Shown here: in pieces, positions 4,516 through 38,350 of the stretch | Layout: every line of letters starts with the position of its first letter | Position numbering within the stretch: the stretch's first letter is position 1 | Assembly: GCA_947588985.1 (NCBI GenBank) | Contig: CANQBG010000004.1 | Coordinates: 1,667-65,666 of the forward strand | Direction: 5' to 3' | Length of the DNA: 64,000 nucleotides | Source: an uncultured Clostridia bacterium | GTDB lineage: Bacteria > Bacillota > Clostridia > Christensenellales > Borkfalkiaceae | Translations under genes and position numbers: made by a program | The notes under the pieces: generated by a model | Told to the model about the DNA's origin: nothing | Seen by the model: the letters and a program-made list of their open reading frames with translations, nothing else | The model's database searches: none

Positions 4516-4707
4516 CCACTTTCAAAAATTTTTTTTGCGCTCGCAACCAGCCCCTTCGCCCGCGCTCAAGGAAACGGAATCGGGGCGTCTTAATTTTATC
4601 CGTACTGTTAAGGTACTCGCATAATAACTTTTTCTGAAATCCCGGATGTGACATTCCTGGTCGCTGTTGGATCGTTCATCGTCTTGCTCCCAGCGATTGG
4701 CAGCCTG

Positions 4708-7563
4708 CTACCTTTCCCTTCGTCCTCGTAAATAATGCCATTTTTTATCATAATCGTTATGCAACGGGTAAAATGGCTTACATAGTTTCTTGATCTCAAA
4801 GCGCTTCTCCGCCTTTAGCTTCCCAAAGCCATGTTGGTTCGCTGATTTTTTTTGAGGCGCGGAATCACTCGGCTTAGGTATCGGTTTCTGCATATTTCCC
4901 CTAAGCTTACTTCCTCTTTGCCGCCAGAAACCTGGGCGGGGACTTCCCCATACGACAGGACAATTTCCATTCGCCTCCCGGTTTTTCACATTCCAAGCCT
5001 TCCCCCAGCAACTAGGCTCTTCGGGTGCTTCACAGTAAATCGTCAAACTGTTACAACCCCAGAACGCCTGTGTCCCTATCGAGGTCACGCTATCCGGAAT
5101 GGTAATGGAGGTCAAATCGCTATAACCATAGAACGCATATTCGCCAATCGAGACTACGCTATCGGGAATCATACTATTCCTACAACCTAAAATCAAGGCT
5201 TTCGAACGCTTTTCAATTAAGCAATCGTTTTCACTTCGATAGACGGCATTCCCCTTCGCCACTTCAATATAATCGAGTCCATTGCACTCAAAAAACGCCC
5301 GCTTCCCAATCAAAGTCACGCTTTCCGGAATGACAATGCCCGTAAGCCCGCTGCAGCCCCTGAACGCATCGCCCCCGATCGAAGTGATGCCCTCGGGAAT
5401 AACAATGCCCGCGAGCCCACTGCAACCCCTAAACGCATCCTGCCCAATCGTAGTCACGCCAAGGGGGATCACGCTGGTATTGCAACCCAAAATCAAGGTC
5501 TTAGAACGTCTTTTGATCAAGCAATTGTTTTCACTCCGATAGACGGCATTCCCCTTCGCCACTTCAATATACTCGAGTCCATTGCACCCAAAAAACGCCC
5601 GCTTCCCAATCGAATTCACACTGTCGGGAATGACGACTTGCTTGAGCCAACCGCAATCCAAAAAAGCCTTATCCCCAATTGAAGTCACGCCGAGAGGAAT
5701 TTGAACCTTCGCCGCTTTCCCTATGTACCGTTTTAAGATAGTCCCTTCTATTTGGAATTCTGGCTTATCATCAAGAGTAGGCGTGATCTCTGGTGCGGGT
5801 TGCGGTGCGGGCTTTTGTTGCGGTTTGGGTTCAGGTGCGGACTGCGACACGGGTTGCCGCGTTTCGGAAAAAGTTCTTCCTCCGCACTCCATACAAACTT
5901 TTGCGTGTTTCGGATTCTCCTGCCCGCAAAAAAGACAAAACTTAGTGGACGCAAATTGCTCCTCTAAAATAGCAATCCTTTGCCGTAGCTTTTCTATTTC
6001 TCTTTTCTGTGCCTCATTCTTTTCTCGTTCAAGTTCAAGCGCATCTTTATCGCGATCGCTCTTTCTGTTTGCCCACTCCAATGCATCAACAAGCGTTGTC
6101 CCGGGAGCCGGACATTTTGCACTGTTGCAAAACATTGCGTCAAGCAAATACGATTTCCCGCATATGGGACAATATTTCAACCCGCTCTCTACGTATTCCC
6201 CGGCATTTTTGACCGCATTCGCCACGCCCTGCAAAATCTCTTTTACGGGTTCCGCTCGGTCCCATTCTTCATACTTTCCATCCAGATCGTCTTCTAATTC
6301 AATGACTGTATCCTTGTAAACGACAATGATACGATCAAATGGATTTTTCCCTCTCTTTTCGCAAAATTTACAAAACCGGTTGATTTCATTTTCGACCCAA
6401 GGCGTTTTACGATATTCCTCCTTGCTGCACACAAGGAGCATGATTTTCACCCTTGAAAGCGCATAATGGATGAGGGACTCATATTCGATTGTTCCCTGCT
6501 TCGCACGTTGCTCTTTGCAATCCACATCGGAGAAGAAGGGATTTACACCAAGTTTTTTCAGCCCTTCATATACTTGCTGTTCCTTGATCCACTCGTAATC
6601 ATCGGTATAGGGCCCGTCTTTATACTCCGACACTTTCGTGCAGATGAAGCAATCATAAGAAAGACCCTTGTCACGGTACTCGCAGATATGCTTCCGGCTA
6701 CTTTTAAGTTTTTTAACAAATCCTCTGAATACGCTTTTTTGTTCATCCGAGGCATTGTCAAGCGCTTCACGATAAGAACCGTGATTTTCAAATAAATCCA
6801 TATTGTAATCAAACAATATGAACCGTTCGGCATTGGCTACATCATCCCAAATCAACTGGATCTTCCACTCCGCCAAGGCCATCCCAAAATAGGCGTCTGC
6901 CGACATGCCGCCCGTAGCGGCTTTCGTGGCTTCGTTGAAGCGCTCTTTGGCGAGTTCAAACTCTGCCGCTTGCAGTGCACGATATCCCAACAACAAGTTC
7001 CGTTCGCAATAGTCCTCTTCCCGTTGGTCCCTTTTGGCCTCGCGTTCGATGATCCGCCCTAAATCTCGCTGAACTTCATCCAATCTCCTATCCAAAGCGC
7101 TGTAGTACTGTTCCGCTAAATAGTTTGCCTTTTGCTGCAATGCCTGCATACTTTCCAGCAAACTCTTGTCTTCCGATAGCTTTTCGGTGAGTTGCGCGAT
7201 AAAACTCTTGAATAGCACCGCTTGGCCGCTCTGCAGGTCCTCGAATCTCTTTTGGACGGCTGCCTCGATCCGCTCCTCGCTTTGGGATTGCGCATCTTTT
7301 ATATTGCAAACATACTCGATAAATTTGCTCTCGACAAGTGCGCCGACTTGCTTTGCCACATCTTCGGTGACGGCATGCCTCTGCGCCCTTATTTCTCGCG
7401 TGAGCTGTTCGGTGAGTCGTTCGGTCTGTTTATCGAGATAATCCTCTACGGCCTTTTCGTCGAGACCTGTGGAAATTACAATATCCCTTGCTCTGATTTT
7501 GCCCGTATTGATTAAAGAGTTTTCGCCGGTATTACTTACGCTGCCTGCTTCTTTCCGCGCCAT
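4708..7563 (-). CDS. TIR-domain protein with coiled-coil/TPR-like N-region, two zinc ribbons, Pro-rich linker and BspA-type leucine-rich repeats
   Basis: The TIR-like core spans aa ~302-425 (SYDCFICTKVSEY...TPWVENEINRF, resembling the SxWCxxEL catalytic-Glu motif). Zinc ribbons are CPICGK..CNSAKC and CLFCGQ..CMECG. The Pro-rich linker reads PEPKPQQKPAPQPAP. About 23-aa repeats follow (IPDSVTSIGxxAFxGCSxLTxI) and end in LTIYCEA...PVVWG. GGAG RBS. Confidence 0.8.
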   Translation of the reverse strand: MARKEAGSVSNTGENSLINTGKIRARDIVISTGLDEKAVEDYLDKQTERLTEQLTREIRAQRHAVTEDVAKQVGALVESKFIEYVCNIKDAQSQSEERIEAAVQKRFEDLQSGQAVLFKSFIAQLTEKLSEDKSLLESMQALQQKANYLAEQYYSALDRRLDEVQRDLGRIIEREAKRDQREEDYCERNLLLGYRALQAAEFELAKERFNEATKAATGGMSADAYFGMALAEWKIQLIWDDVANAERFILFDYNMDLFENHGSYREALDNASDEQKSVFRGFVKKLKSSRKHICEYRDKGLSYDCFICTKVSEYKDGPYTDDYEWIKEQQVYEGLKKLGVNPFFSDVDCKEQRAKQGTIEYESLIHYALSRVKIMLLVCSKEEYRKTPWVENEINRFCKFCEKRGKNPFDRIIVVYKDTVIELEDDLDGKYEEWDRAEPVKEILQGVANAVKNAGEYVESGLKYCPICGKSYLLDAMFCNSAKCPAPGTTLVDALEWANRKSDRDKDALELEREKNEAQKREIEKLRQRIAILEEQFASTKFCLFCGQENPKHAKVCMECGGRTFSETRQPVSQSAPEPKPQQKPAPQPAPEITPTLDDKPEFQIEGTILKRYIGKAAKVQIPLGVTSIGDKAFLDCGWLKQVVIPDSVNSIGKRAFFGCNGLEYIEVAKGNAVYRSENNCLIKRRSKTLILGCNTSVIPLGVTTIGQDAFRGCSGLAGIVIPEGITSIGGDAFRGCSGLTGIVIPESVTLIGKRAFFECNGLDYIEVAKGNAVYRSENDCLIEKRSKALILGCRNSMIPDSVVSIGEYAFYGYSDLTSITIPDSVTSIGTQAFWGCNSLTIYCEAPEEPSCWGKAWNVKNREANGNCPVVWGSPRPGFWRQRGSKLRGNMQKPIPKPSDSAPQKKSANQHGFGKLKAEKRFEIKKLCKPFYPLHNDYDKKWHYLRGRRER

Positions 7564-7583
7564 TTTCGCGTCTCCTGATATTT

Positions 7584-8219
7584 TTACTTATCGGTGGTTT
7601 TGAAGAGCTCTTCTATATTTATTGTAATATTTTTTGCTTGAATTTTTCCCGTATTGTTAAAAGATCCCTTGCCGGTATTATTGATATCACCAGAGCCTTC
7701 ATAGTACTTCCTTATAACCTCCGTGTTTCCGGCGCTTATATTTGCTTCGTTGAGTTTATCATCGCAATATTCATAGATAAAGAAAATCAAGCCGAAGGAA
7801 CAATCGCAAACGCCTATAACATTACACCATACCGCCGGAATATACTCAAGTGCACTTAAAATTCCCAAAGCAAGCACCGCCCCCGTTACGACGGCGAGAA
7901 TAACGATTACCCAAACGGCCCTCTTTTTTTTGCTCGCCCGCATTGAACCGAGCGCTTCATCTTTGACTTGTTTCCGCACGTCTTCCAATTGCTTCTTCAG
8001 TTCAGCATGCAGACTCTCCAAATAGGAATCTGCATTTTCTATTCTTGATTCCCGATACAGATAATTATCTATGAGGCCAAACGCCTTTTCGGCCTTTTTT
8101 AACCTATTTTCAGGCAAACAATCGATAAGTTCGCAACTTTCATCAATCAAAAATTTACCTAATTCGTCCACTTTTGGCTTCAACTCGCCAAGTTTTTTCG
8201 TCATTTCTGTTTTTATCAT
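7584..8219 (-). CDS. small membrane protein (helical N-domain, TM hairpin, C-terminal NTGK motif)
   Basis: 211 aa with an AAGGAG RBS. Two hydrophobic helices (AVWVIVILAVVTGAVLALGILSAL, VIGVCDCSFGLIFFIYEY). I recognise no family. Confidence 0.65.
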   Translation of the reverse strand: MIKTEMTKKLGELKPKVDELGKFLIDESCELIDCLPENRLKKAEKAFGLIDNYLYRESRIENADSYLESLHAELKKQLEDVRKQVKDEALGSMRASKKKRAVWVIVILAVVTGAVLALGILSALEYIPAVWCNVIGVCDCSFGLIFFIYEYCDDKLNEANISAGNTEVIRKYYEGSGDINNTGKGSFNNTGKIQAKNITINIEELFKTTDK

Positions 8220-8270
8220 GATGGCTTTCTCCTTTTTTATAAACCACGCGCGTTGGCATAGGATTCATGC

Positions 8271-9782
8271 TCATTCATGCTTCAAATAGTTGATCGCTTT
8301 TTCAGTAAGACTTCTGCCGCGGCCGGTGACGATAATAAATCCAATCCTAATAAGATACGGTTCGTATTCGGAGAGGTACTTCTTGGGGTCCAATCCAATA
8401 CGGGCAGCAAGCGTATCGGCGCCGATCGCACCGCTCATATCCTCTGCGATTGCGTTCAGGATCTCCAAATCCTTCTTTTCAAGGCCGATCTCATTGATGC
8501 CCTTTTCTTCAAAATACCGCTTCACGACGTCGAGATCGATGCTCGTTGAAACGCGCTGGCCCTTATCGTCGTAGAGTGCCGTATCCAACCCGTCCACAAA
8601 AGAATTGACATAGCGAATAGACCCGCGGCTACGGGGAATACAAGCGTCTATTGCTTCGTCGGTAATGGTAAGGCCCTTCGATGCTACTTTGTTCTTATAA
8701 ATGCGTTTCAGCTCATCGGGCGTATAGTCCACCATCTGGAACTTCAATCTGAGGCATCTGTCTTTTATGGTATTGAGGACCTTATCATCGTCGGTGGTTG
8801 CCGCGATAAAGGTGAAGTTGTCGATCGGAATGCGTTTCACCACGCCGTTTATGTCGGGCGGCGAGACATACACGCGACTGTTGAGCAACGTTAAAAGGCT
8901 CGATTGCAGCTCGTCCGTCAACATATGTATTTCGTCAAAGGCGATCACGACGGGTTCGTTCTCCCTTGCGACCTTCATCAAGAAATTCTGCAAGGCCTTC
9001 AGGGATTGCTGGCTGTTGCGATATTGCGAACAGTCCATCCACTCATACCGAACGCCGAGCGCCTTTGCGATAAGTTCCATGAGCGTGGATTTCCCAAGCC
9101 CGGGATTGCCGAAAAGCAGGATGTTATCGAGATACTTCCTTCCCTGCGCTTTGGCAATGGCGATTTCTTTTAACAAAGGTTTGACGATATGCTGCTGACC
9201 GATAAATCCCTCCAATGTATCCGGAGAGAACAACGGCTCATCTTTTCCTCCGCCGTCAACTTCTTCTCCCTCCGAAGCGGGCACAACGGGTGCGACGGGG
9301 GCATCAACTTTCGGCTCGTCGTCCTGCCCCTTTATGATCGGCTCCACGGGGATAAGCGGCTCCGCGGGTTCGGAAATAATGGGCGAAGGCTTGACGTCGG
9401 GCTCTTGCGGTCCTACAATGCCGTCTATATTCACGCCGCCGCTTGGAATCGACGGTCCTTGAGGGGGCAAAGCGCGTCCGCCCCCGCCCAAGATATCCCC
9501 GAAGGAAGGGATATCCGTGTCTGCAATCAGCCCGAAGAACTTTTGGACACGCCTGTCCTGCAGGCCGTTTTTGCGGATGATTTCTATGTAACTTCCGAAA
9601 ACATCCTGCCAATGGGATAGCTTTGCCTTGATAACGATGGGATCGCCGTTGTTGAGCGAATATTGCCCGGCAAACAGCTTGTACAGCTCTAAGAGCCCTT
9701 GCAACGTGGCCTCTTGATCGTTTGCCCGCGCGGCATGCAATGCCGCTCTGTACTTCTCACGAAATAAATCTGCAAATGTCAT
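8271..9782 (-). CDS. RuvB-like AAA+ ATPase with N-terminal MIT-like helical domain and Pro-rich linker
   Basis: FIGQQHIVKPL, Walker A GNPGLGKST, Walker B VVIAFDEIHML, and FTFIAATTDD...IKDRC. The C-terminal winged helix YEPYLIRIGFIIVTGRGRSLTEKAINYL closely matches the RuvB C-terminus (EPYLIQxGFxxRTPRGR). The first ~175 aa are extra relative to RuvB. Confidence 0.8.
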   Translation of the reverse strand: MTFADLFREKYRAALHAARANDQEATLQGLLELYKLFAGQYSLNNGDPIVIKAKLSHWQDVFGSYIEIIRKNGLQDRRVQKFFGLIADTDIPSFGDILGGGGRALPPQGPSIPSGGVNIDGIVGPQEPDVKPSPIISEPAEPLIPVEPIIKGQDDEPKVDAPVAPVVPASEGEEVDGGGKDEPLFSPDTLEGFIGQQHIVKPLLKEIAIAKAQGRKYLDNILLFGNPGLGKSTLMELIAKALGVRYEWMDCSQYRNSQQSLKALQNFLMKVARENEPVVIAFDEIHMLTDELQSSLLTLLNSRVYVSPPDINGVVKRIPIDNFTFIAATTDDDKVLNTIKDRCLRLKFQMVDYTPDELKRIYKNKVASKGLTITDEAIDACIPRSRGSIRYVNSFVDGLDTALYDDKGQRVSTSIDLDVVKRYFEEKGINEIGLEKKDLEILNAIAEDMSGAIGADTLAARIGLDPKKYLSEYEPYLIRIGFIIVTGRGRSLTEKAINYLKHE

Positions 9783-9808
9783 AATTATTTACTCCTTTCG
9801 ATTCTTTG

Positions 9809-12406
9809 TTAAGATTTTTCTTTATATCCCCAAACCACGGGCCGGCCCGAGTTCCAATCGTTGTCCCATCCCTTCGGCTGTTCTTTTGCTTCACAATAAA
9901 TCGTCAAGTTGCTGCAACCATCGAACGCCCAACTCCCAATTGAAGTCACGCTGTCGGGAATGGTAATGGAAGTCAACCCGCTGCAACCATCGAACGCCCA
10001 ACTCCCAATCGAGGTCACGCCGTCGGGAATGGTAATGGAAGTCAATCCACTACAACCGCTGAACGCATTCCAGCTAATCGAAGTCACGCTGTTAGGGATG
10101 GTAATGGAAGTCAATCCGCCACAACCATAGAGCGCATAACTTTCAATCGAGGTCACGCCGAGAGGAATCTTGATATTCTTACAACCCAAAATCAAGGCAT
10201 TCGAATCCCTTTCAATGATACAATTTCCTTCACTACGATAGACAGCATTCCCCTCCGCTACTTCAATATGTTCGAGTCCAATACATCCGCGAAACGCATA
10301 ATTCCCAATCGATGTCACGCCGTCGGGAATGGTAATGGAAGTCAATCCACTACAATCCTCGAACGCATAACTTCCAATCGATGTCACACTGTCCGGAATG
10401 GTAATGGAGGGCAACCCGCTGCAATCCTGGAACGCATCATTCCCAATCGATGTCACACTGTCCGGAATGGTAATTGAGGTCAAAGCACTACAATTATAGA
10501 ACGCAGAATTCCCAATTGAGGTGCCTCCTGTGATGATGACTTCTTTCAGCGATGCCGGAACAAATCTATAGTTAGAGGAATTATACTCTGCGCCGAAAAT
10601 GTAGCCGAAATGCGTATTTTCGGAACCCTCGTTCGAAGCGCCCACAAACGGAATCGTGATCCTCACAAGCGAACTACAATCCTCGAACACACCGCCTCCA
10701 ATCGAGGTCACGCTATCGGGAATAAATACCGATTGTAGGCGTAATGAATCAACGTCTTTTCCCCGACCGACGGCTGTAACAGGCTCCCCGCGGTATTCAG
10801 AAGGAATCTCCAAGTATTCCGTCATTTTGTTGCAAATAACGTAAGTATATGTTCCGTCCGCATTTTCCGTGTAATAATCCAACTTTACGAAATTCGGGAA
10901 GGTGCTCACCCCCCCTGTCATGATTGCATAGACAAAAAATAAGCTACCCGAGCAAACAAGGAGAAAACGCGGTATGCATTTTCCTTTATGCTTTATAAGC
11001 CCCCATATTATGAGCCCTAAATACGCAACAAGTGCAATAACAAATCCTAAAATTATCCACCACTTCCAATCGCCCACCGCTTGATAGACAAAAATCCATT
11101 CTGATAAAAAAATTCCGACATCAACTGAGGCCGCGCCTTGCCAATCGACGCCAAACCCTTCGAAATTTGGGTTTTTACTAACAAAGGATAGCACTATCCA
11201 CAATGCGGCTAACCCCAAAACAGCCAAGCAATTTAGCCCGTAAATGATCGTGAACAACCAACCCGTATAATCATCAAACGACTTAACAGGAAGATAAAAA
11301 TCCAAAATCATAACCGCAATGGAGAGGGCAATCGGAAGAATCAGTACAGTATATATTCCGATTTGTTGTAAAACCGGAATGGCACGTTTAAGACGTTCAC
11401 GGCGTTTTTCTTTCCTTTTTTGCCTATGTAGTTTTTTGTCATCGCTTTCCGCGACGGAAATTTCTATGGCTCTTAAGCGCTTTTCCTTCTCCTCGCTCAA
11501 ATATTCGTCGTATTGAGTTTTATATTCTCTGTAATCATCATCTATTAGAGTACCGCTTTGTCCCCTGTATCTCTCAATCGCTTCAATATATTTTTTGATT
11601 TCTGACCCGCGAAATTTCGTGAAATTTTTTGAGGCAATTCGCAAAAGTCCGACATAACCGTTTGCATCCTTCGGGTTGGAATCAAGCGCCTTGTTGAAAA
11701 TTTGCTTGGCCTTTCGCAAGGCGTTCTTTTTCCGAGGATGCGCCGGAGCGCCGCACAATCTTATTGCTTCTTTGATCTCTTTTTCGTATTCTTCTTCGGG
11801 AGTGATAAGACTTTTGGCTTCAGCAATGGAAATGCCGTAGGTACTATGAAATTTCTTCTTTTGTACCCAGTTGCAAATTCCGGCAACGGCGGCAACTACA
11901 AGAGTAACGATCTCCGCTCCACCTGTACAATAAAAGCCGATTCCATCGTAATCCATCCCAAAATACATCGCGACGGGACTAAGCAAAAGTATAAATATCG
12001 CGGATATGATTGCCGTCCACTTTGAAATGGTTTCTCCGTCGATTGCCTTTTGGGCGGCGTCTCCATTCCGCTTCAAACACTCCCTGATCTCCCGCAAATG
12101 CTCCATCTCGCGATCATGCCATGTTTGGACCTCGGCGCATATCGCGGCAAACCTGTTGTCTACTGTTCTTTCTTTGCCATCTTTGTTTTCTCCTCTCAGC
12201 GTATCGAATCTGAGAAACGACTCTAATTCGGTTTTATCCGTCAGACCTTCCAAACTGCTTAATCCTTCAAGCGTACAATCGTTAAATCCGCGAAGGAGCG
12301 CCTCTATACGATCGTAATATTTTTCGTATATTTGAGGATAGTCGGACTTCCACCTACTATCCTTAAGCATCTGCAAAAATTTTCCTGCCTTAATTGCGTT
12401 CTTCAT
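9809..12406 (-). CDS. polytopic membrane protein with C-terminal BspA-type leucine-rich repeat domain
   Basis: 865 aa. A helical N-domain is followed by a TM hairpin (aa ~130-180), a basic coiled coil and about 6 further TM helices (aa ~345-520). About 13 LRR units follow (ITIPDSVTSIGSWAFDGCSGLTS), ending in LTIYCEAKEQP...PVVWG. Confidence 0.8.
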   Translation of the reverse strand: MKNAIKAGKFLQMLKDSRWKSDYPQIYEKYYDRIEALLRGFNDCTLEGLSSLEGLTDKTELESFLRFDTLRGENKDGKERTVDNRFAAICAEVQTWHDREMEHLREIRECLKRNGDAAQKAIDGETISKWTAIISAIFILLLSPVAMYFGMDYDGIGFYCTGGAEIVTLVVAAVAGICNWVQKKKFHSTYGISIAEAKSLITPEEEYEKEIKEAIRLCGAPAHPRKKNALRKAKQIFNKALDSNPKDANGYVGLLRIASKNFTKFRGSEIKKYIEAIERYRGQSGTLIDDDYREYKTQYDEYLSEEKEKRLRAIEISVAESDDKKLHRQKRKEKRRERLKRAIPVLQQIGIYTVLILPIALSIAVMILDFYLPVKSFDDYTGWLFTIIYGLNCLAVLGLAALWIVLSFVSKNPNFEGFGVDWQGAASVDVGIFLSEWIFVYQAVGDWKWWIILGFVIALVAYLGLIIWGLIKHKGKCIPRFLLVCSGSLFFVYAIMTGGVSTFPNFVKLDYYTENADGTYTYVICNKMTEYLEIPSEYRGEPVTAVGRGKDVDSLRLQSVFIPDSVTSIGGGVFEDCSSLVRITIPFVGASNEGSENTHFGYIFGAEYNSSNYRFVPASLKEVIITGGTSIGNSAFYNCSALTSITIPDSVTSIGNDAFQDCSGLPSITIPDSVTSIGSYAFEDCSGLTSITIPDGVTSIGNYAFRGCIGLEHIEVAEGNAVYRSEGNCIIERDSNALILGCKNIKIPLGVTSIESYALYGCGGLTSITIPNSVTSISWNAFSGCSGLTSITIPDGVTSIGSWAFDGCSGLTSITIPDSVTSIGSWAFDGCSNLTIYCEAKEQPKGWDNDWNSGRPVVWGYKEKS

Positions 12407-12426
12407 TCACCACCACGCTCCTCTCC

Positions 12427-13449
12427 TCACAATTCGATATCATTGCTTTCGCACCACTTCTTGAGCAGTTCCTCAATCGCATCCATCGGCGTGGCGTTGG
12501 CATAGCCTTCGGCAGAAACGTTGTTCACGGCGACGGTCTTTGATTTGTTGATACCGATACACTCGCCCAGCCTGTTGAGGACGGGCCCGCCCGAATCGCC
12601 CGGATTGGACGGCGCGGTATAGACCAAATTCCCCTCGTCGTTTTGTGTGAAGCGAACAACGCCCGCAAAGGGAGCAAGGCCCATCCCGAAGGCATTGCCG
12701 ATTACAAGGCAATCCGCGCCTTGCAACACCTGCGAATAATCGGGTACGCGCTTTATAACTGTAAATTCACCCACCTCGGCGGGATCAAAGCTGCAAAGCG
12801 CAACATCCGCTTTCTTGTCGGAGAACAAAATATTTATCTTATAGCTCTTTTTCTCCCCCAAAAAGGACATTTTTGCTTTCGGATAATAGCATTGCGTTTT
12901 CTCATTGAACACAACATGGTCGTTGGTAAGGAGATATCCGTTTTTAGAAATAATGAAGCCCGTCCCTGTCGCGCCGACGCGAGAATCGGAAACAGAGATT
13001 GCAACAACGGATCGCTTGCTTTTTTCAAACAGCTCGGCACACCAACCTTGCGTTTTGGCGGATTCGTCTATCAGTCCCGCGATATCAATTTCATCGCTCG
13101 GCGGGGAAGGTTGCGCAGGTTGATCGGCGCTCGACGGTTTTTTGGGTTCCTGCTCAGCAGGCTTTTTCACCACTTTCGGCAAATTTTGTTCTTGTTTTGT
13201 CGGAAGCCCGAAACATTTCAAAACAAAATCGGTGATGCCCTTTGTCCGAAGCTCTTTTGATACCGCGATCCATTTATCTAAAAAAGCCTGCGTCTTTGCT
13301 TTGATGAGAATGGTTTTCGCCTGATTATATGTTTCAACCGCATAATTCAAAATGGCGAGAACATATGCTCTCGCCGCTTTGGGGTTATTTTGTTTGATAA
13401 GCTCCCTTGCGTTCGAGTAGTAGGTAGCTATCTTATCCCGATCGTTCAC
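12427..13449 (-). CDS. trypsin-like serine protease (S1/HtrA-like core, no PDZ) with N-terminal MIT-like helical domain
   Basis: GTG start directly after the upstream stop, with AAGGAG 8 nt upstream. Catalytic triad context: LTNDHVV, ADVALC, GDSGGPV. The N-terminal ~85 aa helical domain is followed by a Pro/Lys-rich linker. Confidence 0.8.
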   Translation of the reverse strand: MNDRDKIATYYSNARELIKQNNPKAARAYVLAILNYAVETYNQAKTILIKAKTQAFLDKWIAVSKELRTKGITDFVLKCFGLPTKQEQNLPKVVKKPAEQEPKKPSSADQPAQPSPPSDEIDIAGLIDESAKTQGWCAELFEKSKRSVVAISVSDSRVGATGTGFIISKNGYLLTNDHVVFNEKTQCYYPKAKMSFLGEKKSYKINILFSDKKADVALCSFDPAEVGEFTVIKRVPDYSQVLQGADCLVIGNAFGMGLAPFAGVVRFTQNDEGNLVYTAPSNPGDSGGPVLNRLGECIGINKSKTVAVNNVSAEGYANATPMDAIEELLKKWCESNDIEL

Positions 13450-14643
13450 TCATTTGCTCCTTTTAAGTCTCAAAAGTAACTCCTCGTAGGATATTCCCAT
13501 ATCATACGCCTTAAATCTCAACAACATCTCGTTCGTTACGCCGTTGATATAGTATTTAATTACCTTGTCGCAATCTGCAAGAGTTATCATCTCGCCTTGC
13601 TCGCGCCCCTTCTTCATAATGTTAAGAATTTCGCGCCTTAAAGGTTCATTCGCGATTTGCTTCATGATCGCCCTGATATCGGCACCCGCATATCCTTCTA
13701 ACCTTTGCGCGAGATATTCGACAGTGACGTCCGGCGCATGGGGCAAGTGAGCGAGGTCAAGTGCAACAAATTTTTCTCGGGCATCCGCATCGGGAAGCGG
13801 AACGTAAATTTGCGTTTCGAACCTTCCGCCCCGTTTGAGTGCGGGATCGAGTTTCCACGGCAAATTCGTTGCCGCTACAATGATCCGAAGTTGATTGGGC
13901 TTTTGGGTTTTCATAAAGCCGTCCATGCAAGTCAACATGGTGGTCAGTATGGATTTTGTATGCCTCGAATCATCGCTGCTCCGATCTGAACAGATACTAT
14001 CGATTTCGTCGAGAAAGATGATGCATCTGTCAAGCTCTGCCGCCTGCGCAAAGATGTCCCGCATATTCTTTTCGGCAACACCTACGACGCTTGCCAAAAC
14101 TTCGCTTGTTTGGACAACGGCTATCTTGCAGTTCAATGCCCCTGCAAGACACTTTACGATGTGCGTCTTCCCTGTCCCGGGAGGCCCGTATAACAGGATT
14201 TGCGTTCCGAGTTGATTCCCTCTGAACTTATGATACACAGTCTGGAATTCGGGCCTCAAGGGAGCGACGACGTCCACCATAAAGGCATCCTTGACTTCTT
14301 GGACGCCGATGATGTTCGTAAAATTAAGTTTCGGCACTTCGTCCGAAAACCACTTCCTCTCGGAATAATAGGGGTCAACGCCACCTTCCCCGTCACTCGA
14401 ACAAGCAACGGAGAGAGGCGGCTGCTTTGCGTAGCGAACAAGGTGACTGATTACGACGGAACATTGTTTGCGATAGGCATCTTTTGTCGTCGTGCTTACG
14501 TTTGGATTGGAACATTGCTCCATGGCCATATGAAGCATTTCGGCGCCAACCTCACAAATGGCATCTATGTCTCCTGCAGCCACTGCTTCATTAAAGGTGC
14601 CTATCTTACTATTGAAGACACTAATCATGCTCGCTTCTGCCAT
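13450..14643 (-). CDS. Vps4/CdvC-like meiotic-clade AAA+ ATPase with N-terminal helical (MIT-like) domain
   Basis: Walker A LLYGPPGTGKT and Walker B IIFLDEIDS. AATNLPWKLDPALKRGGRFETQIYVPLPD matches my recollection of Vps4 (ATNIPWQLDxAxRRRFExRIYIPLPD). The lid reads LEGYAGADIRAI. Single AAA cassette, 397 aa. Confidence 0.75.
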   Translation of the reverse strand: MAEASMISVFNSKIGTFNEAVAAGDIDAICEVGAEMLHMAMEQCSNPNVSTTTKDAYRKQCSVVISHLVRYAKQPPLSVACSSDGEGGVDPYYSERKWFSDEVPKLNFTNIIGVQEVKDAFMVDVVAPLRPEFQTVYHKFRGNQLGTQILLYGPPGTGKTHIVKCLAGALNCKIAVVQTSEVLASVVGVAEKNMRDIFAQAAELDRCIIFLDEIDSICSDRSSDDSRHTKSILTTMLTCMDGFMKTQKPNQLRIIVAATNLPWKLDPALKRGGRFETQIYVPLPDADAREKFVALDLAHLPHAPDVTVEYLAQRLEGYAGADIRAIMKQIANEPLRREILNIMKKGREQGEMITLADCDKVIKYYINGVTNEMLLRFKAYDMGISYEELLLRLKRSK

Positions 14644-14657
14644 AATTGTATGTTACC

Positions 14658-15281
14658 TTAGTCCTTTTTTCCGTTCTCTTCGGCAACGATCCCCGCATAG
14701 TCGATGTCGCCGGTTGCGGTTGCGTCTGCGCCTTCAGGCTTAGAAACGGCTTCGGGAGTAATTTTCCCCTTCACGCGCTCTATCATGGCCGCATACTCAG
14801 CTTTGAATTGATCGGATTGCTCAATCTCATCCGCCGTAGTTCCATCCAAACGGCTCGAAATGCTCTCAACCGGCTTGGGATCGAGAATTTCATTCAGCTT
14901 TGCAAGTTCCGCTTCGGATTTGTTGATGTCTTTGAAAATTGCCGTGATGCTCTTCCCAAGTTTGGTAAAATCGGGCGATTCTGCCAACAGGCCTTTGCAA
15001 CCCGCAATTGCCGCAGGGAGTTTCCCGAGTTCCGAAATCGCCAGTGCCGTGTATGCCCCGAGTTCAATGTTGCTCTTGAGCGTTTTGAGTTGTTCGATAA
15101 GCGCATATACGCGAATCTTCTGCTTGATCAGTTGTTTGGCTCTCGCATCGTCGCTACGCAATGCGGCTTCGTCGATATAGACATCATACTTTGCTCCAAA
15201 CTTTTGAAGATTGCGAACGGACTTATCGAGTGCATCCAATGCCGCAATGATTTTTTGGTCATTTGTTTGTTTCTTAGCCAT
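14658..15281 (-). CDS. Snf7/ESCRT-III-like helical protein (candidate)
   Basis: 207 aa with a basic N-terminus (MAKKQTNDQK) and predicted long helices (ARAKQLIKQKIRVYALIEQLKTLKSNIELGAYTA; ISELGKLPAAIAGCKGLL; FTKLGKSITAIFKDINKSEAELAKLNEIL). The tail is acidic. Size, charge polarity and helix pattern resemble CdvB/Snf7. It lies immediately upstream of the Vps4-like gene. Assignment is by eye only. Confidence 0.5.
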   Translation of the reverse strand: MAKKQTNDQKIIAALDALDKSVRNLQKFGAKYDVYIDEAALRSDDARAKQLIKQKIRVYALIEQLKTLKSNIELGAYTALAISELGKLPAAIAGCKGLLAESPDFTKLGKSITAIFKDINKSEAELAKLNEILDPKPVESISSRLDGTTADEIEQSDQFKAEYAAMIERVKGKITPEAVSKPEGADATATGDIDYAGIVAEENGKKD

Positions 15282-15332
15282 AATATTTATCTCCTTATTA
15301 TTTTTTTACATATTTGAATCCAATCTGCCGGT

Positions 15333-15809
15333 CTACTTCCTGTCTGGAATTGCCGCTTCCGCGGCACGAATCAATTCTTCGATTGCCTCACTTTCCATCT
15401 CGTCGCAAAGCTCGCGCACCAGTTCGATCCCCATTTTTTTTAATTCGGGCAAATGCCGCATGTCCTTTGCCGCCATCATTAAAGCGCCTTCATGGATGGC
15501 TTTCCAAACCTTTTTATAATCGCCCGAACGGATAGCCATTTGTGCTGCACCGATTGCCGCATTGAAAATGTCGATTATGGCGGAAAATTTTTCGATGTTC
15601 TGCCGGGCCGTCATATCATCTGCTGCTTCTCTTGCGGCCTTTAGTCGGAGACTATACAAATTGACGATATCTTCCAAGAGATAAAATTCAACAAAAGCCT
15701 CCCTGTCGATGAGCGAAACCCGTATCTGCTGATATATCGGACTTTTTTTCAACATGCAATTTGCCTGTACAACACGTGCTCTATGCGAGCGAATTATGCT
15801 TTTCGCCAT
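15333..15809 (-). CDS. hypothetical helical protein, paralogue B (conserved C-terminal tail IRAAEAAIPDRK)
   Basis: ORF 15333..15887 trimmed to Met27 (MAKSIIRSH). Clearly paralogous to the upstream gene (IDREAFVEFYLLEDIV, NIEKFSAII.IFNAAIGAA, SGDYKKVWKAIHEGALM). Confidence 0.7.
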   Translation of the reverse strand: MAKSIIRSHRARVVQANCMLKKSPIYQQIRVSLIDREAFVEFYLLEDIVNLYSLRLKAAREAADDMTARQNIEKFSAIIDIFNAAIGAAQMAIRSGDYKKVWKAIHEGALMMAAKDMRHLPELKKMGIELVRELCDEMESEAIEELIRAAEAAIPDRK

Positions 15810-15825
15810 AAAATCCGTCTCGGTT

Positions 15826-16440
15826 TTAGGTATTCGGATCCATTCTGCTGGTCTTCTTCCTGTCGGGAATCGCCGCTTCCGCGGCACGGATCACTTCTTC
15901 GATTTCATCCATGGTAGGAGGAAGATCTTTTACCCTGCGCACGTTTTCCTCATGCGCATCCAAATCGTCCAAATCTTCATCCAATTCATGACTAATGTCT
16001 ACCGCAGTCATCATGTCTTCGGACAGCTCACGCAACAGCTCTATTGCTAAGCTCTTTAATTCGGGCAAATTTTTGACACTACTCGCCGCCGCCATCAAAG
16101 CGCCTTCATGGATGGCTTTCCAAACCTTTTTATAATCGCCCGAATTGATAGCTGATCTCGCTGCCCCGATTGCCGCGTTGAAAATGTTGATGATGGCAGA
16201 AAATTTTTCGATATTCTGCTTCCTGCCTTTTTCATCGGCGCGGCCCTGAGGGACATATGCCTTTTCTTCTCCCAGGCGGATATTGTATAACTTAACAATA
16301 TCCTCCAATAAGTAAAACTCGACAAAAGCCTCTCGGTCGATGATTGAAATACGCTCTCTACTAAATTTCGGATGTTTTTTCAGCGTTTCATTTGCCTGCT
16401 TCACCCGAGCCATGTGTGAACGGATTGTTTTTTCTCCCAT
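15826..16440 (-). CDS. hypothetical helical protein, paralogue A (acidic C-region plus tail IRAAEAAIPDRK)
   Basis: 204 aa with a GGAGG RBS. First gene downstream of a consensus promoter. Basic N-terminus and an acidic C-terminal third (ELDEDLDDLDAHEE). Confidence 0.7.
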   Translation of the reverse strand: MGEKTIRSHMARVKQANETLKKHPKFSRERISIIDREAFVEFYLLEDIVKLYNIRLGEEKAYVPQGRADEKGRKQNIEKFSAIINIFNAAIGAARSAINSGDYKKVWKAIHEGALMAAASSVKNLPELKSLAIELLRELSEDMMTAVDISHELDEDLDDLDAHEENVRRVKDLPPTMDEIEEVIRAAEAAIPDRKKTSRMDPNT

Positions 16441-16543
16441 AAATGTTTCCTCCGAATTATATGGATGTTATTTTTGTCGAAAACTATGAATGTACCAACA
16501 GCCAAAAGAGTCGGCCGAAGAATACTACATTTTACATAATTTT

Positions 16544-16572
16544 TCTGTTTATCATTATAAACCGTTTCCTTA
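16544..16572 (-). promoter_or_regulatory. consensus sigma-A promoter of the ESCRT-like operon
   Basis: On the minus strand: TTGACA, a 17-nt spacer (TAATTAAGGAAACGGTT), then TATAAT, about 100 nt upstream of the ATG at 16440. Confidence 0.6.
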
Positions 16573-16690
16573 ATTATGTCAACTGTTATCCGCTATATTT
16601 CCCTCAAAAAGCCGAAAAAATCTTCTCTTTCGTCCATTTCCGCATCCCTCCTTGTTTGATGTCATTATAATCCATCCTGATTGCAAGTTA

Positions 16691-16936
16691 TCAGTTCTTT
16701 TTCCGCCCTTCCAGCAAGTCGTAATATTCCTCGAATATATCGAGTGCCGCAAGCTCATCCGTTTCGATTTTGAGATATGGCGGCCCTTGGGGCGGTTCTC
16801 CCACATAAAAGACCATCGCCTCATCATCGGCAACCCCCTCCATCGGAGTAATGGGTTTCAAGACGCAATACAGTTTCTCGTCGTGTGGGATGACCGCCAC
16901 CTGTTCAAAAAGAATTTCGTGGCCATGTTCATCCAC
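16691..16936 (-). CDS. DUF1292 family protein (N-terminus apparently frameshifted; see finding)
   Basis: VDEHGHEILFEQVAVIPHDEKLYCVLKPI...YLKIETDELAALDIFEEYYDLL fits the DUF1292 pattern (compare B. subtilis YrzB). The ORF starts at GTG. A much better RBS+ATG lies at 16992 in another frame. Confidence 0.65.
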   Translation of the reverse strand: MDEHGHEILFEQVAVIPHDEKLYCVLKPITPMEGVADDEAMVFYVGEPPQGPPYLKIETDELAALDIFEEYYDLLEGRKKN

Positions 16937-17004
16937 AAGACGGATCGGATCACGGTGTCTGCATCAAGCAACACATCGATAATGGTTTCCATAGCGTAAC
17001 CTCC

Positions 17005-19491
17005 TTATCCGTCAAGCGGTCCATATTTCTTGATGAACTGCTCTTTCGTTATGAGTATACGGCGTCCCTTCGACCTATCGAGCGGAGAGATGTATCCCAT
17101 GCTTTCCATCCAGTCGATGATTTTCCCCGCATGGTTGTATCCAATACAGCATTTCCGCTGCACGAGGGAAATTGACGCCTCACCTTCTTGGATCACGATT
17201 GCCAGAGCCTTAATATAGAGCGGGCTTTCCGGGGACGCATCCGTGTCCTTGTCGGAAGCATTCGAGGCAGTTTTCTTGGTGGCACGCCGGATATATTGCT
17301 TGGCCCCCTCATTAAACTTTGCCTCATGCGTCTTCTTTGTTGCCGCAACGGCTGCGGCCAATGCCTCATACGGAAGATAGGCGCCCTGTATTCGTTCGCA
17401 CAGCGAAGTGAATTCGCTCCACATGAGCAGATCGCCAAACCCAAGCAGTTTTTCTGCTCCGCTTTCATTGATGAGTATACGCGAATCGTTTTCCCGGATC
17501 ACCCGAAACGCAATGCGCGTGGGGAAATTTGATTTCAACGCACCCGTAACGACATCTGGGGTCGGTCGTTGGGTAGCAAGAACGAGGTGGATTCCTGCCG
17601 CACGTGCTTTTTGCGCCAACCGTAGCACGCCCTCCCCAATGGCGCGATTTACTGCGACAAAATCCGCATATTCGTCGATGATGATGACGATGCGCGGAAG
17701 ATTTTCCTCCCCTTCTTTACGCGCCGCATGATAATCTTCGATATTCCTTATCGGATCTCCCGCAGCAATCTTGCCTTGAAAGATTTGATACCGGCGTTCC
17801 ATTTCATGGATTGCCCACGTCAGCATGCGAGCCATGGGCTCCGCGTCTGTGATGATATGCCCCGTGAGAAGGTGCGGCATCTCATCATAGTGCATAAACT
17901 CCGATTGTTTAGAGTCGCACAATATGAGCCGGACATCGTCGGGAGAGTATTTTGTTACCAAGTTGTAGATCATCGTATGGAGGAACGTGGATTTCCCGGA
18001 ACCGATTGTGCCTCCGATCAAAATGTTTTTGAGGCGTACAATGTCTCCGTAAACGGAATTCCCGTCCACATCTTTACCGATGGCGAAGTAGAGCGACTCC
18101 GGCTTGCTCCACCGTTCGTTGGCATCGTGGATCAATTCCTCCGCCGGAACCGTCTCGCGCTCGGACCGAACGCGCGGCACCTCGATGCAGATCCGTCTGC
18201 TGCCCGCGGGATCGGTATAGACCCGCACCCCTTCCCTTTGCCCAAGGCGCATGGCAAGCTCGGTGGCTCTTTTGGTTACGGCGGATGGGGAAACCGCGCT
18301 CGGAATCACAAGTGCAAAGCGCATAACCGTCGCCCCCACGGAAACATTGGCGATCCCGGAATCAATGTGGAATCCCGCCAATGTCCCGGTGATGATGTCT
18401 GCGGTTCTCGTCACTTCATCGGACAAGATCCTCTTGTCGAAAAGTTCGTCATCTACGTCCTCCTCATCGAAGGCCTCTTTTTCTTCCTTTTCGACGCCTA
18501 CGGCTTGCCCGGATTCTCTTGCGAGGAGGGTATCGCGGATTTTTGCATAATCCGCCTCCGTCATCTTGGCAAACTCCTTCACCGCCCTTGCGTAGACGAC
18601 AATGTCGTCAATGTTTTCGCCGTCCTTCACTCTCTGATAGCGTTCCCGCATGCGCAGGATCAGCTGCCCGCGATCCATCTCCGGATCGGCGGTCAACAAT
18701 TCCTTCGCGACGCCTAAAATGCTTTCATTCTCTTTGCCGGTATCCACGCACATGGCGACCTCATCCGCGTCGATCGCAACAATACGCTCTATTGCTGCAA
18801 ATAGTTGTAACATATAGGTTACGGTATTCTCGGGAGAGGGAACTTCGATCCAAAGCTCGTCCTCGACAATGCTGATCTGATAGCGATCCGCAATCGAGTG
18901 GATTCGTTCTGAGATTCCCTCCGCGTCAAGCGGCGTGTGCATCTTGAGAAAGCGAAGCGCGATTGCATCGTCCGAAAGATAGACATCGTCATCCCGGATC
19001 ACAATCTTGAACCGGATCGTCCTTCCGCGGATATTTAGCCCTTCGGGGGCGAGATAATGTTCGCCGTTTATTTGGATAATCGAAACGCCTTCGTCCAACT
19101 CATGGGTGATGGCATAAACTTCCGGCGGAGTATCGTCGCCCGATTCCTTGTCGTCCGATTCGTCGTCATCCGATTCCTCGTCGTCCTCCAAAGTTTCCTT
19201 CTCACATTCCTCACGCATTCTCCGAAGGATCTCCCGCCTGCGCGCCTCTAAAGACGCGCGTCTTGATCTCAGATCATACAACTCGTCGAATCTCCCGGCT
19301 TCCCTTTTTCTGTCTGTCTGTAAGACGAAATATTGAATGCCCGAATCCAAACGGAGCACCCCGTCCTCCACACATTTTTCGATTAGTTTGGAGATGCTAC
19401 GATAATCGGCAGAAAATCTTTTCTGCAATTCCGGGATCGAAACCTTCTGCTGCGCCTTAATATAATTGAGTATTTCTTGATCGTTTGCCAT
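17005..19491 (-). CDS. FtsK/SpoIIIE-family DNA translocase, soluble (no TM region), with wHTH domains at both ends
   Basis: Trimmed to MANDQEIL (AAGGAG RBS). Walker A GGTIGSGKST, Walker B IVIIIDEYADF, and ATQRPTPDVVTG. The C-terminal gamma-like wHTH reads ISLVQRKCCIGYNHAGKIIDWMESMGYI. An N-terminal wHTH is followed by an acidic stretch. I see no hydrophobic helices. Confidence 0.85.
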   Translation of the reverse strand: MANDQEILNYIKAQQKVSIPELQKRFSADYRSISKLIEKCVEDGVLRLDSGIQYFVLQTDRKREAGRFDELYDLRSRRASLEARRREILRRMREECEKETLEDDEESDDDESDDKESGDDTPPEVYAITHELDEGVSIIQINGEHYLAPEGLNIRGRTIRFKIVIRDDDVYLSDDAIALRFLKMHTPLDAEGISERIHSIADRYQISIVEDELWIEVPSPENTVTYMLQLFAAIERIVAIDADEVAMCVDTGKENESILGVAKELLTADPEMDRGQLILRMRERYQRVKDGENIDDIVVYARAVKEFAKMTEADYAKIRDTLLARESGQAVGVEKEEKEAFDEEDVDDELFDKRILSDEVTRTADIITGTLAGFHIDSGIANVSVGATVMRFALVIPSAVSPSAVTKRATELAMRLGQREGVRVYTDPAGSRRICIEVPRVRSERETVPAEELIHDANERWSKPESLYFAIGKDVDGNSVYGDIVRLKNILIGGTIGSGKSTFLHTMIYNLVTKYSPDDVRLILCDSKQSEFMHYDEMPHLLTGHIITDAEPMARMLTWAIHEMERRYQIFQGKIAAGDPIRNIEDYHAARKEGEENLPRIVIIIDEYADFVAVNRAIGEGVLRLAQKARAAGIHLVLATQRPTPDVVTGALKSNFPTRIAFRVIRENDSRILINESGAEKLLGFGDLLMWSEFTSLCERIQGAYLPYEALAAAVAATKKTHEAKFNEGAKQYIRRATKKTASNASDKDTDASPESPLYIKALAIVIQEGEASISLVQRKCCIGYNHAGKIIDWMESMGYISPLDRSKGRRILITKEQFIKKYGPLDG

Positions 19492-19501
19492 ATTTTTCTC
19501 C

Positions 19502-22817: not shown

Positions 22818-23409
22818 GGTGACTTCCTCCTTTCGCTTTGTTTGCGCCCGGGATCACATGGTCGATGAGGCCGTATTCCTTCGCGGCGGCAGCACTCATG
22901 ATGGTGTCGCGGTCGGTGTCCTTTTGAATCTTCCGGACGGGTTGATTCGTATTCTCGGCCATGATTTTGTTGAGCCTTGCGCGGATACGCTCGATATGAT
23001 TGGCCGCAATGATGATATCCGACGCCTGCCCGCTCGCCCCGCCGAGGGGCTGGTGGATGAGGATCTCACAGTTCTCCGTAGCCCTGCGCATCCCGCGCGT
23101 CCCCGATGAAAGCAGGAACGCCGCCATACTTGCGCACATCCCCAGCCCTACCGTCGCGATCTTTGCGTCGATGTAGTTCATTGTATCATAGATGGCCAGC
23201 CCGTCCGAGACGCTTCCTCCGGGGCTGTCGATCTGAATGGTGATGATGCGCTCCTCCATCGGTACTTCATCCGTGCGGAATTTGTCGTCGAGATATTGGA
23301 GCTGGCTGATAACGCGCTCCGCCGTCTCCGCCGTGATCGGTTCAAAAATATTGATGGTATTCCGCTTCAGACTGTATTGCCATGAAAATTCTTCCTTTTG
23401 GTCTATCAT
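22810..23409 (-). CDS. ClpP-family serine protease (paralogue encoded in the island)
   Basis: Trimmed to MIDQKEEF (AAGGAG RBS). IDSPGGSVSDGLAIYDTM, GMCASMAAFLL (Ser), IHQPLGG (His) and DTDRD (Asp) are closely similar to canonical ClpP. Confidence 0.88.
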   Translation of the reverse strand: MIDQKEEFSWQYSLKRNTINIFEPITAETAERVISQLQYLDDKFRTDEVPMEERIITIQIDSPGGSVSDGLAIYDTMNYIDAKIATVGLGMCASMAAFLLSSGTRGMRRATENCEILIHQPLGGASGQASDIIIAANHIERIRARLNKIMAENTNQPVRKIQKDTDRDTIMSAAAAKEYGLIDHVIPGANKAKGGSHHV

Positions 23410-23504
23410 GTTTTTCTCCTTACGAATTAGTTTCGGTTGAAAATCTACAACTCGGTGCGGCTTGGGATCCATCGTTCCCATATAATCCAATGTTCTTTGA
23501 TATA

Positions 23505-23533
23505 ATTATACACGATTTCGTCAATCGTGTCAT
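23505..23533 (-). promoter_or_regulatory. putative promoter of the ClpP-to-DUF1292 operon
   Basis: On the minus strand: ATGACA, a 17-nt spacer ending in TG, then TATAAT (extended -10), about 95 nt upstream of the ClpP ATG. Confidence 0.45.
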
Positions 23534-23617
23534 AACTGCATCTCGCTGAAATTTACAAGTATTCCATCCGTTTTGAATAGATTGTTGCAAAAAATACAAG
23601 ATTTCCGCTTTATATGG

Positions 23618-23650
23618 CAAAAAAGAATCTTGTATTCGCTACAAGATTCT
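23618..23650 (-). terminator. rho-independent terminator after the HTH gene
   Basis: Perfect 11-bp stem AGAATCTTGTA / TACAAGATTCT with loop GCGAA (minus strand), followed by TTTTTTG. Lies 30 nt downstream of the stop at 23681. Confidence 0.7.
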
Positions 23651-23680
23651 ACAAAACCGATTTTTATTGATTGAGCAATA

Positions 23681-38135: not shown

Positions 38136-38141
38136 TATTTT

Positions 38142-38327: not shown

Positions 38328-38350
38328 GGAAGCACAAAAAGGAGAACCCT

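Follow-up and report, generated by a model that had tools for sequence, protein, structure and literature searches.

A helical head domain common to a trypsin-like protease and a RuvB-like ATPase in a bacterial Snf7/AAA gene cassette: a putative MIT-like or adaptor-type docking module

The DNA analysed here, referred to below as the window, is a stretch of 64,000 nt from an uncultured Clostridia bacterium of the Borkfalkiaceae (GCA_947588985.1, contig CANQBG010000004.1, positions 1,667 to 65,666). It contains an island in which the GC content drops to 0.44–0.52 (window ~4.7–24 kb, 4700–24200), as against 0.55–0.62 in the flanks, and every gene of this island lies on the minus strand. Two of these genes encode chemically unrelated enzymes, a serine protease and a RuvB-like ATPase, whose first ~85 residues are homologous. 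This shared N-terminal head and its gene cassette, which also encodes helical proteins, a Snf7-like (ESCRT-III-like) protein and a classical AAA ATPase, are the subject of this report. The features concerned are the following, in transcription order and window coordinates.

15826–16440, minus strand: helical protein of unknown family, found in 18 of the 18 related loci
15333–15809, minus strand: paralogue of the helical protein, with 15809 as its probable start
14658–15281, minus strand: Snf7-like (ESCRT-III-like) protein, 207 aa (Pfam Snf7)
14685–14705, minus strand: short motif IDYAGIV in the C-terminal tail of the Snf7-like protein, context TGDIDYAGIVAEENGKKD
13450–14643, minus strand: classical AAA ATPase, 397 aa (Pfam AAA, 3.9e-36)
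14425–14643, minus strand: helical N-domain within the AAA ATPase, ~73 aa
12427–13449, minus strand: head-bearing serine protease, 340 aa (Pfam Trypsin_2, E=1.7e-17)
13201–13449, minus strand: protease head, aa 1–83, three long helices plus a short fourth in the AlphaFold2 model (pLDDT, the predicted local distance difference test, 93.4), ending in F-G-L
13069–13089, minus strand: short motif IDIAGLI (aa 121–127; DEIDIAGLIDE) at the end of the Pro-rich protease linker, pattern match
12427–13050, minus strand: Trypsin_2 (HtrA-like) protease domain
8271–9782, minus strand: head-bearing RuvB-like ATPase, 503 aa (Pfam RuvB_N 2e-15, RuvB_C 9.8e-17)
9525–9782, minus strand: RuvB-like head, aa 1–86, paralogue of the protease head (AlphaFold2 pLDDT 85.9)
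9483–9515, minus strand: family-specific segment DIPSFGDILGG immediately after the RuvB-like head
9414–9434, minus strand: short motif VNIDGIV (aa 117–123; GGVNIDGIVGP) in the RuvB-like linker, pattern match
8271–9230, minus strand: RuvB-like AAA+ module with C-terminal winged helix (Pfam RuvB_N, RuvB_C)

As a preliminary description of this DNA had proposed, both enzymes consist of a helical head of ~85 aa, a Pro-rich linker (aa 84–133 in the protease and aa 87–184 in the RuvB-like ATPase) and a catalytic domain. The triad motifs of the protease are legible in its sequence as His (TNDHV), Asp (DVAL) and Ser (GDSGGP), and its NCBIfam DegP/HtrA matches fall under their cut-offs. The RuvB-like ATPase displays legible Walker A (GNPGLGKS) and Walker B (FDEIH) motifs, and T. 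maritima RuvB (1in4) aligns to its residues 185–503 (E=1e-31), over the whole ATPase and the winged helix. While its RuvB_N and RuvB_C domains and this alignment liken it to the RuvAB motor, it differs in the N-terminal head, in the Pro-rich linker of ~100 residues, in the lack of a conserved RuvA in the cassette and in a score under the NCBIfam RuvB equivalog cut-offs (TIGR00635 / NF000868; 154.6 vs 282 bits, 140.8 vs 299). RuvB works with a RuvA partner that is usually encoded alongside it. The same description had noted a RuvB motor with its complete winged helix and no RuvA partner, and this agrees with the presence of RuvB_C and with the finding that, in a search confined to the related loci, the cassette holds no conserved RuvA-like gene. 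The DIPSFGDILGG segment that follows the head is conserved across the related loci, and the divergent locus L020 keeps it as PSFSDIMSG.

The homology of the two heads was established by profile comparison. The peptides from which it had been proposed, K45–P83 of the protease and D47–I86 of the RuvB-like ATPase, are exact and their coordinates correct. Pairwise BLASTP between the two N-terminal regions is marginal (E=0.044) and too weak alone. Head profiles were therefore built separately from the full-length homologues of each enzyme family, and in hhalign the protease-family profile aligned with the RuvB-like-family profile over the full length of the head (81 columns, E=6.7e-5, probability 64%). 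The score of 29.0 lies ~7.5 standard deviations above that of 200 column shuffles (11.5 +/- 2.3, maximum 19.5), the reversed-profile control reaches 16.8, and each half of the domain adds to the score; the similarity is significant and exceeds the shuffle null. With divergent members included, each assigned to its family by the catalytic domain alone, hhalign gives a probability of 99.0% and E=8.1e-18 over 86 columns. These members were recruited by a merged head profile, a dependence from which the 81-column comparison and the shuffle null are free. Some of them bridge the two families, one example being a RuvB-type head that reads NYVSARELTRTGD, to be compared with YYSNARELVKQNN of the protease type. 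Chance likeness was ruled out by the shuffle null and these bridging members, and the presence of one N-terminal head on two chemically unrelated enzymes is borne out by the profile–profile comparison together with the predicted topology.

The head is strongly conserved within each of the two enzyme families. Positions conserved in both include Y11, A14, a basic residue at 19, Y41, I47 and K50-A51-K52, followed by G71, D74, V76 and the final F80-G81-L82. Furthermore, the heads are basic in both families, with a mean net charge of +3.8 and an isoelectric point (pI) of ~9.2.

The distribution of the head proved to be narrow. When the merged head profile was searched against 1.84 billion representative proteins, 64 clusters were matched. 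All full-length matches are either head plus Trypsin_2 protease (~290–385 aa) or head plus RuvB-like ATPase (~450–690 aa), and the others are fragments and two TPR proteins. The head profile weakly touches proteins with TPR_10/TPR_12 repeats; its two long matches of this kind, P0274 and P0299, were rejected as head fusions, being NB-ARC/AAA_16 proteins with TPR_10/TPR_12 repeats. It had been suggested that the sharing of the head reflects the effector-recruitment logic of conflict systems. A promiscuous effector-recruitment module is not what is seen, with only two fusion partners among the 1.84 billion representatives, and since every full-length match is a protease or a RuvB-like ATPase, the head is better regarded as a two-member paralogous pair than as a widely shared adaptor.

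Related loci were sought in one genome per species across 185,579 species. Eighteen were found, all in metagenome-assembled genomes from gut or rumen, with uncultured Clostridia, Christensenella, Anaeroplasma, Acholeplasmatales and Coproplasma as hosts. The gene order helical protein(s), Snf7-like protein, AAA ATPase and protease is kept in 18 of 18 loci, with the RuvB-like gene after the protease in the 14 that reach far enough, and divergent metagenome contigs retain the cassette gene order. The protease and RuvB-like genes share an operon in every locus and are immediate neighbours in 8/18; in some loci leucine-rich repeat (LRR) or transmembrane genes interrupt the pair. A second copy of the helical protein also occurs in L001 and L008. 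The families are similar in size (305 clusters for the protease, 296 for the RuvB-like ATPase and 264 for the Snf7-like protein). A tyrosine recombinase lies immediately upstream of the cassette in six loci, and a search of window 1–30 kb for tRNA genes as an attachment site found none. A phage or plasmid origin of the cassette is unsupported, as phage collections, plasmid collections and IMG/VR contain no full-length relative of the head-protease.

The AlphaFold2 models predict the same topology for both heads, three long helices and a short fourth. In the protease head the helices span residues 3–19, 23–43, 47–69 and 74–79 (pLDDT 93), and in the RuvB-like head 3–19, 23–42, 49–72 and 77–82 (pLDDT 86). 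In Foldseek searches against the PDB, about 20 of the 30 best matches of the protease head are MIT or MIT-like domains (VPS4A/B, katanin p60, MITD1 and NRBF2), with target-normalised template modelling (TM) scores mostly of 0.61–0.77 and root-mean-square deviations (rmsd) mostly of 1.3–3.3. The RuvB-like head matches NRBF2, the MIT domain of Sulfolobus Vps4 (TM 0.76, rmsd 2.0), spartin and VPS4B. Overall, MIT domains, which are antiparallel three-helix bundles of about 70–80 residues, predominate among the top matches (TM up to 0.77, rmsd 1.3–2.5).

Beyond the earlier finding, a short acidic motif was found that the Snf7-like tail has in common with both enzyme linkers. Searched as the pattern [IV][DN][IFYLM]xG[IL][IVLM], the motif (I/V-D-x-x-G-I/L-I/V) is present in exactly 3 of the 15 island proteins. 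In the open reading frames of the 18 loci (109,020 residues) it occurs 41 times, against 1.2 expected, and all occurrences are in these three families. Among the homologues listed, the motif is found in 120/120 proteases and in 117/120 Snf7-like proteins, always 6–9 residues from the C-terminus, and the strict pattern is matched by 76/120 RuvB-like proteins. Moreover, covarying variants are seen in divergent loci: in L024 the tail has IDSIDSIL and the RuvB-like linker EIDSIIEE, and in L022 the tail has INDLLGMM and the linker GLFDILGE. The tails are acidic (pI 4.1–4.9), in contrast with the basic heads.

The 207-aa product of the neighbouring gene is, judged by the profile of its family, probably a Snf7-family protein, with the window copy itself sub-threshold. 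Pfam Snf7 (PF03357) was matched by 19/19 family members (best E=1.3e-7), and PF03357 is recorded for about 45% of the 120 Snf7-like homologues listed. The proposal that the neighbours at 14658–16440 have C-terminal tails of interest is supported by alignments, which reveal conserved tail motifs in these proteins. Besides the motif of the Snf7-like tail, the helical protein has a conserved acidic amphipathic tail, DEIEEVIRAAEAAIPDRKK, at 15853–15909, and its paralogue carries the same tail, IEELIRAAEAAIPDRK, at 15336–15383. The conserved tail with which both paralogues end is represented by EIEEVIRAAEAAIPDRKK, and most members of the helical family end in (D/K)PN(T/I/L) at the extreme C-terminus. 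The helical proteins gave no Pfam or PDB match, and neither their family nor the Snf7-like family or the AAA N-domain retrieved anything meaningful when run as profiles against PDB sequences. A relationship between the Snf7-like and helical families was considered and set aside, the two being unrelated at the sensitivity of hhalign (E=0.15).

The ATPase next to the Snf7-like gene had been called Vps4-like. It is a classical AAA ATPase nearest to VAT/Cdc48 D2, which provides its best PDB matches, and is not a demonstrated Vps4: the NCBIfam models CDC48 (2e-51) and CdvC (6e-42) both match below their cut-offs, with the CdvC model aligning over positions 87–364 of 370 (143.9 bits vs a cut-off of 650). 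Its helical N-domain had been likened to the heads as well. The hhalign comparison with the heads gives E=0.07 and 0.02 for close homologues and E 3e-3 to 3e-4 (probability 9–42%) for divergent homologues; the alignment covers helices 1–2 only, and the N-domain is neutral in charge. As these values (3e-4 to 0.07) are suggestive at best, the N-domain is not demonstrably the same module, and the view of three copies of one module was not adopted. In pore loop 1 the ATPase has S-V-V-G where the aligned VAT has an aromatic residue (SKWVGE), and its divergent relatives have K-Y-V-G (L021) and S-L-V-G (L024). The stop codon of the AAA gene (13450–13452) abuts the GTG start of the protease gene (13447–13449). 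Elsewhere among the loci this gene pair is either contiguous or shares a few bases, an arrangement suggestive of translational coupling.

Two known systems resemble this part of the cassette. As in the archaeal Cdv (ESCRT-III/Vps4) operons, the genes of a Snf7-like protein and its helical partner(s) stand together with that of a classical AAA ATPase, which has one AAA cassette behind a helical N-domain. In contrast to Cdv, the ATPase reaches 144 bits against the CdvC cut-off of 650, with VAT/Cdc48 D2 scoring higher; the cassette lacks CdvA and has two extra head-bearing enzymes, and it is bacterial and lies on an integrative element. IetAS defence pairs likewise have a classical AAA gene directly upstream of a serine protease gene, and PADLOC matches IetA to the ATPase cassette (E=1.2e-34). 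However, this match reflects generic AAA likeness, with CDC48 scoring higher, and there is no IetS match. Moreover, IetS is of the subtilisin and not of the trypsin type. The identity IetA/IteA was rejected for the AAA ATPase on the ground of generic AAA similarity. In all, PADLOC yielded generic matches only (the catalytic domains of the ATPase and the protease), while neither the heads nor the helical proteins were matched; no model in Pfam, NCBIfam or PADLOC names the head or the system, and the source annotations read "serine protease", "AAA family ATPase", "RuvB" and "hypothetical". In the literature, no description was found of a system combining Snf7, AAA, protease and RuvB-like components.

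The interpretation preferred here, to which a rough probability of 0.45 is assigned, is that the head is a common docking module that takes both enzymes to a scaffold of Snf7-like and helical proteins via their acidic tails. The head is an unnamed basic helical bundle of ~85 residues, present as two old paralogues on the Trypsin_2 protease and the RuvB-like ATPase, and would bind the acidic C-terminal tails of the Snf7-like and helical proteins. Candidate peptide ligands are TGDIDYAGIVAEENKKK in the Snf7-like tail, DEIEEVIRAAEAAIPDRKK in the helical-protein tail, and SDEIDIAGLIDES. If the Snf7-like and helical proteins form a polymer scaffold, the protease and the DNA-motor-like ATPase would thereby be gathered at one place, in a presumed parallel to the eukaryotic MIT domains that take Vps4, spastin, katanin and calpain-7 to ESCRT-III tails. 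The cassette is carried on integrative elements of gut Clostridia and of wall-less Mollicutes-type bacteria. This interpretation is favoured because the heads are homologous, match in topology, find MIT folds as structural matches and are restricted to two families within a conserved cassette, and because there are a probable Snf7-family partner, families of like size, a shared motif, and basic heads facing acidic tails. There is a precedent in the recruitment of AAA ATPases with MIT domains, and of the protease CAPN7, by the tails of ESCRT-III (PMC9477494).

For the motif in the linkers, the likeliest role under the docking interpretation is that of an internal pseudo-ligand, which would hold the head until the tails of the polymer displace the motif copy; alternatively, the motif may be a shared handle for the AAA ATPase. 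For Vps4p it is reported that the MIT domain binds MIT-interacting motifs (MIMs) and so mediates localisation to the substrate, and that regulation couples this localisation to release from autoinhibition (PMC12254338); this release from autoinhibition is a precedent for an internal competitor in the linker.

The resemblance to the MIT/MIM systems (Vps4, spastin, katanin, calpain-7, MITD1 and NRBF2) covers several points: an N-terminal three-helix bundle of ~75 residues followed by a flexible linker and an enzyme, one module on several enzymes that include a protease and AAA ATPases, a co-encoded ESCRT-III-family protein with a conserved C-terminal tail motif, and the best structural matches. 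The differences are that the heads have no sequence-level MIT match, that they add a short fourth helix ending in the invariant F-G-L, that the host is bacterial and that the module is borne by a serine protease and a RuvB-like ATPase. Moreover, the candidate ligand tails do not appear to fit the MIM1 or MIM2 consensus.

Several observations weigh against the docking interpretation. On the structural side, the Foldseek E-values of 0.1–3 are non-significant, and FliS, cytochrome b562 and hemerythrin-like bundles are also among the matches of the heads. On the side of sequence, a Pfam search with the three N-domains at E<=10 gave no MIT (PF04212) and no effector-associated domain (EAD) match, and no MIT chain was retrieved when the head profile was run against PDB sequences. 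The window's own Snf7-like protein scores 19.2 bits vs the Pfam threshold of 27.3, and divergent Snf7-like relatives have no Snf7 match on their own. As for the motif, L020 has IDAITAMI in the tail and no copy in either enzyme; it is weak or missing in the RuvB-like proteins of L009, L010 and L017, and absent from short-linker proteases. In L002, L015 and L017 another sequence stands in place of the conserved tail of the helical protein. The comparison with MIT domains made in the preliminary description thus stands for the fold, by the AlphaFold2 models and the Foldseek rankings, and fails for the sequence. Given the Foldseek E-values, the support for MIT is at the level of the fold only, and the heads are best described as predicted MIT-like three-helix bundles of unproven membership. 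In wider terms, the head may be a docking domain, MIT-like or of the adaptor type, that acts with putative partners in a system of the ESCRT-III/AAA kind.

A more ambitious and less probable version is that the cassette encodes a self-contained bacterial ESCRT-III/AAA machine on integrative elements, with its own MIT/MIM-like code, by which the protease and a RuvB paralogue resembling a dsDNA translocase would be assembled on a polymer at the membrane. The parts of such a code would be the two paralogous heads, the N-domain of the AAA ATPase and acidic tail motifs of two or more kinds. The machine would then be an independent bacterial counterpart of the eukaryotic MIT–enzyme network. Possible purposes of the machine are vesicle-mediated DNA export or infection-triggered membrane remodelling, and the former could be attractive for the wall-less hosts Anaeroplasma and Acholeplasma.

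The main rival to the docking interpretation is that the heads pair with each other as homotypic, EAD-like adaptors, so that the RuvB-like ATPase, once assembled (e.g. on DNA), gathers and activates the protease, with the ESCRT-III-like proteins and the AAA ATPase as downstream substrates or effectors. This is judged unlikely, although the layout fits the EAD pattern, a coupling-adaptor logic in which an NTPase and an adjacent enzyme of the same operon both bear a small helical domain without enzymatic activity (Kaur et al. 2020, PMC7159879), the two genes are adjacent in 8/18 loci and always in one operon, and the head has exactly two partners. EAD copies of adjacent genes are the closest relatives of one another, but in the main clade same-locus heads are not each other's closest relatives: they are no closer than cross-locus heads (mean score 48.4 vs 44.0), the same-locus pair taking scattered ranks from 1st to 17th of 20, with some tendency to same-locus pairing in divergent systems. 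Two domains both at net charge +3.8 are not obvious partners either, and the motif that the Snf7-like tail shares with both enzyme linkers would be unexplained. Furthermore, the Pfam search returned no family for the heads, which covers whatever EAD models Pfam may contain; the head is none of the described EADs and is not spread, as those are, over a variety of effector or signalling domains, and the core here (RuvB-like, Snf7-like and AAA proteins) includes none mentioned in PMC7159879.

It is rather improbable that the head binds something outside the cassette proteins, such as acidic membrane lipids or DNA, or drives self-assembly, its MIT look being generic for three-helix bundles. The pI of ~9.2 in both families would suit such binding, as would the non-significant Foldseek E-values, the unrelated bundles that rank among the MIT domains and the weak match of the head profile to TPR_10/TPR_12 proteins; nevertheless, the head co-occurs strictly with the Snf7-like, helical and AAA genes, whose products carry conserved tail motifs, and a generic lipid- or DNA-binding domain should turn up on more protein families than these two. 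Least probable is that the linker and tail motif is a cleavage site of the protease, by which both enzymes would be freed from their heads and the Snf7-like tail trimmed: the motif is rich in aliphatics, which by general knowledge suits HtrA-type proteases, and in the protease it directly precedes the catalytic domain, but the Snf7-like protein would lose only 6–9 residues, the RuvB-like motif lies ~60 residues ahead of the ATPase module, and this proposal concerns the motif rather than the head and is compatible with any other explanation.

According to a 2025 review, a Vps4-like ATPase "appears absent in bacteria" (PMC7619361), and an ESCRT survey found the components in archaea "but not in bacteria" (PMC11188069). 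The bacterial cassette described here joins a Snf7-like protein and a classical AAA ATPase, machinery that reviews call missing from bacteria, and its two enzymes with MIT-like heads mirror the arrangement by which calpain-7, spastin and katanin are taken to ESCRT-III in eukaryotes. Should the heads read the tails, the recruitment of enzymes by ESCRT-III tails could be studied in a system of about six genes, the fusion of a docking domain to various enzymes would have arisen more than once, and a RuvB-type DNA motor would be tied to membrane-remodelling proteins. We know of no description of this last link.

The remaining genes of the island are the following, in transcription order.

23681–24088, minus strand: helix-turn-helix protein, first in transcription order
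22810–23490, minus strand: ClpP
21198–22817, minus strand: 539-aa protein without family match
19502–21442, minus strand: TraG/VirD4-like coupling protein
17005–19512, minus strand: FtsK-like translocase
16691–16936, minus strand: DUF1292
9809–12406, minus strand: BspA-type LRR surface protein with multiple transmembrane segments (Pfam LRR_5, 1.5e-68), between the protease and RuvB-like genes
7584–8219, minus strand: small membrane protein with two transmembrane (two hydrophobic) segments
4708–7563, minus strand: zinc-ribbon and LRR protein, 951 aa

Relatives of the small two-transmembrane protein were found by BLASTP near the cassette in L001, L005, L007 and L020, and many loci have such a protein. 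As these relatives accompany the cassette in many loci, it is possibly a membrane anchor. Its C-terminus, NNTGKGSFNNTGKIQAKNITI (7620–7682), resembles the N-terminus of the 951-aa protein, SNTGENSLINTGKIRARDIVI (7474–7536; BLASTP E=6e-5), and a similar pairing between the C-terminus of a two-transmembrane protein and the N-terminus of the next protein is seen in L020.

BspA-type LRR proteins form a variable insert in or beside the cassette, at 9809–12406 and 4708–7563 in the window and also in L002, L004, L005, L008, L014, L015 and L017. They vary by locus in number and size, and may be present, absent or swapped. Outside the island, another dip in GC content (0.51 vs ~0.6 around it) is seen at window 38001–40000. 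Finally, in one divergent system (L025:2635–6521) the RuvB-like gene is followed by the gene of a 1123-aa DUF6273 protein and by a bAvd gene. The bAvd product is the accessory protein of diversity-generating retroelements, and its position beside the 1123-aa DUF6273 protein hints at a hypervariable surface protein.

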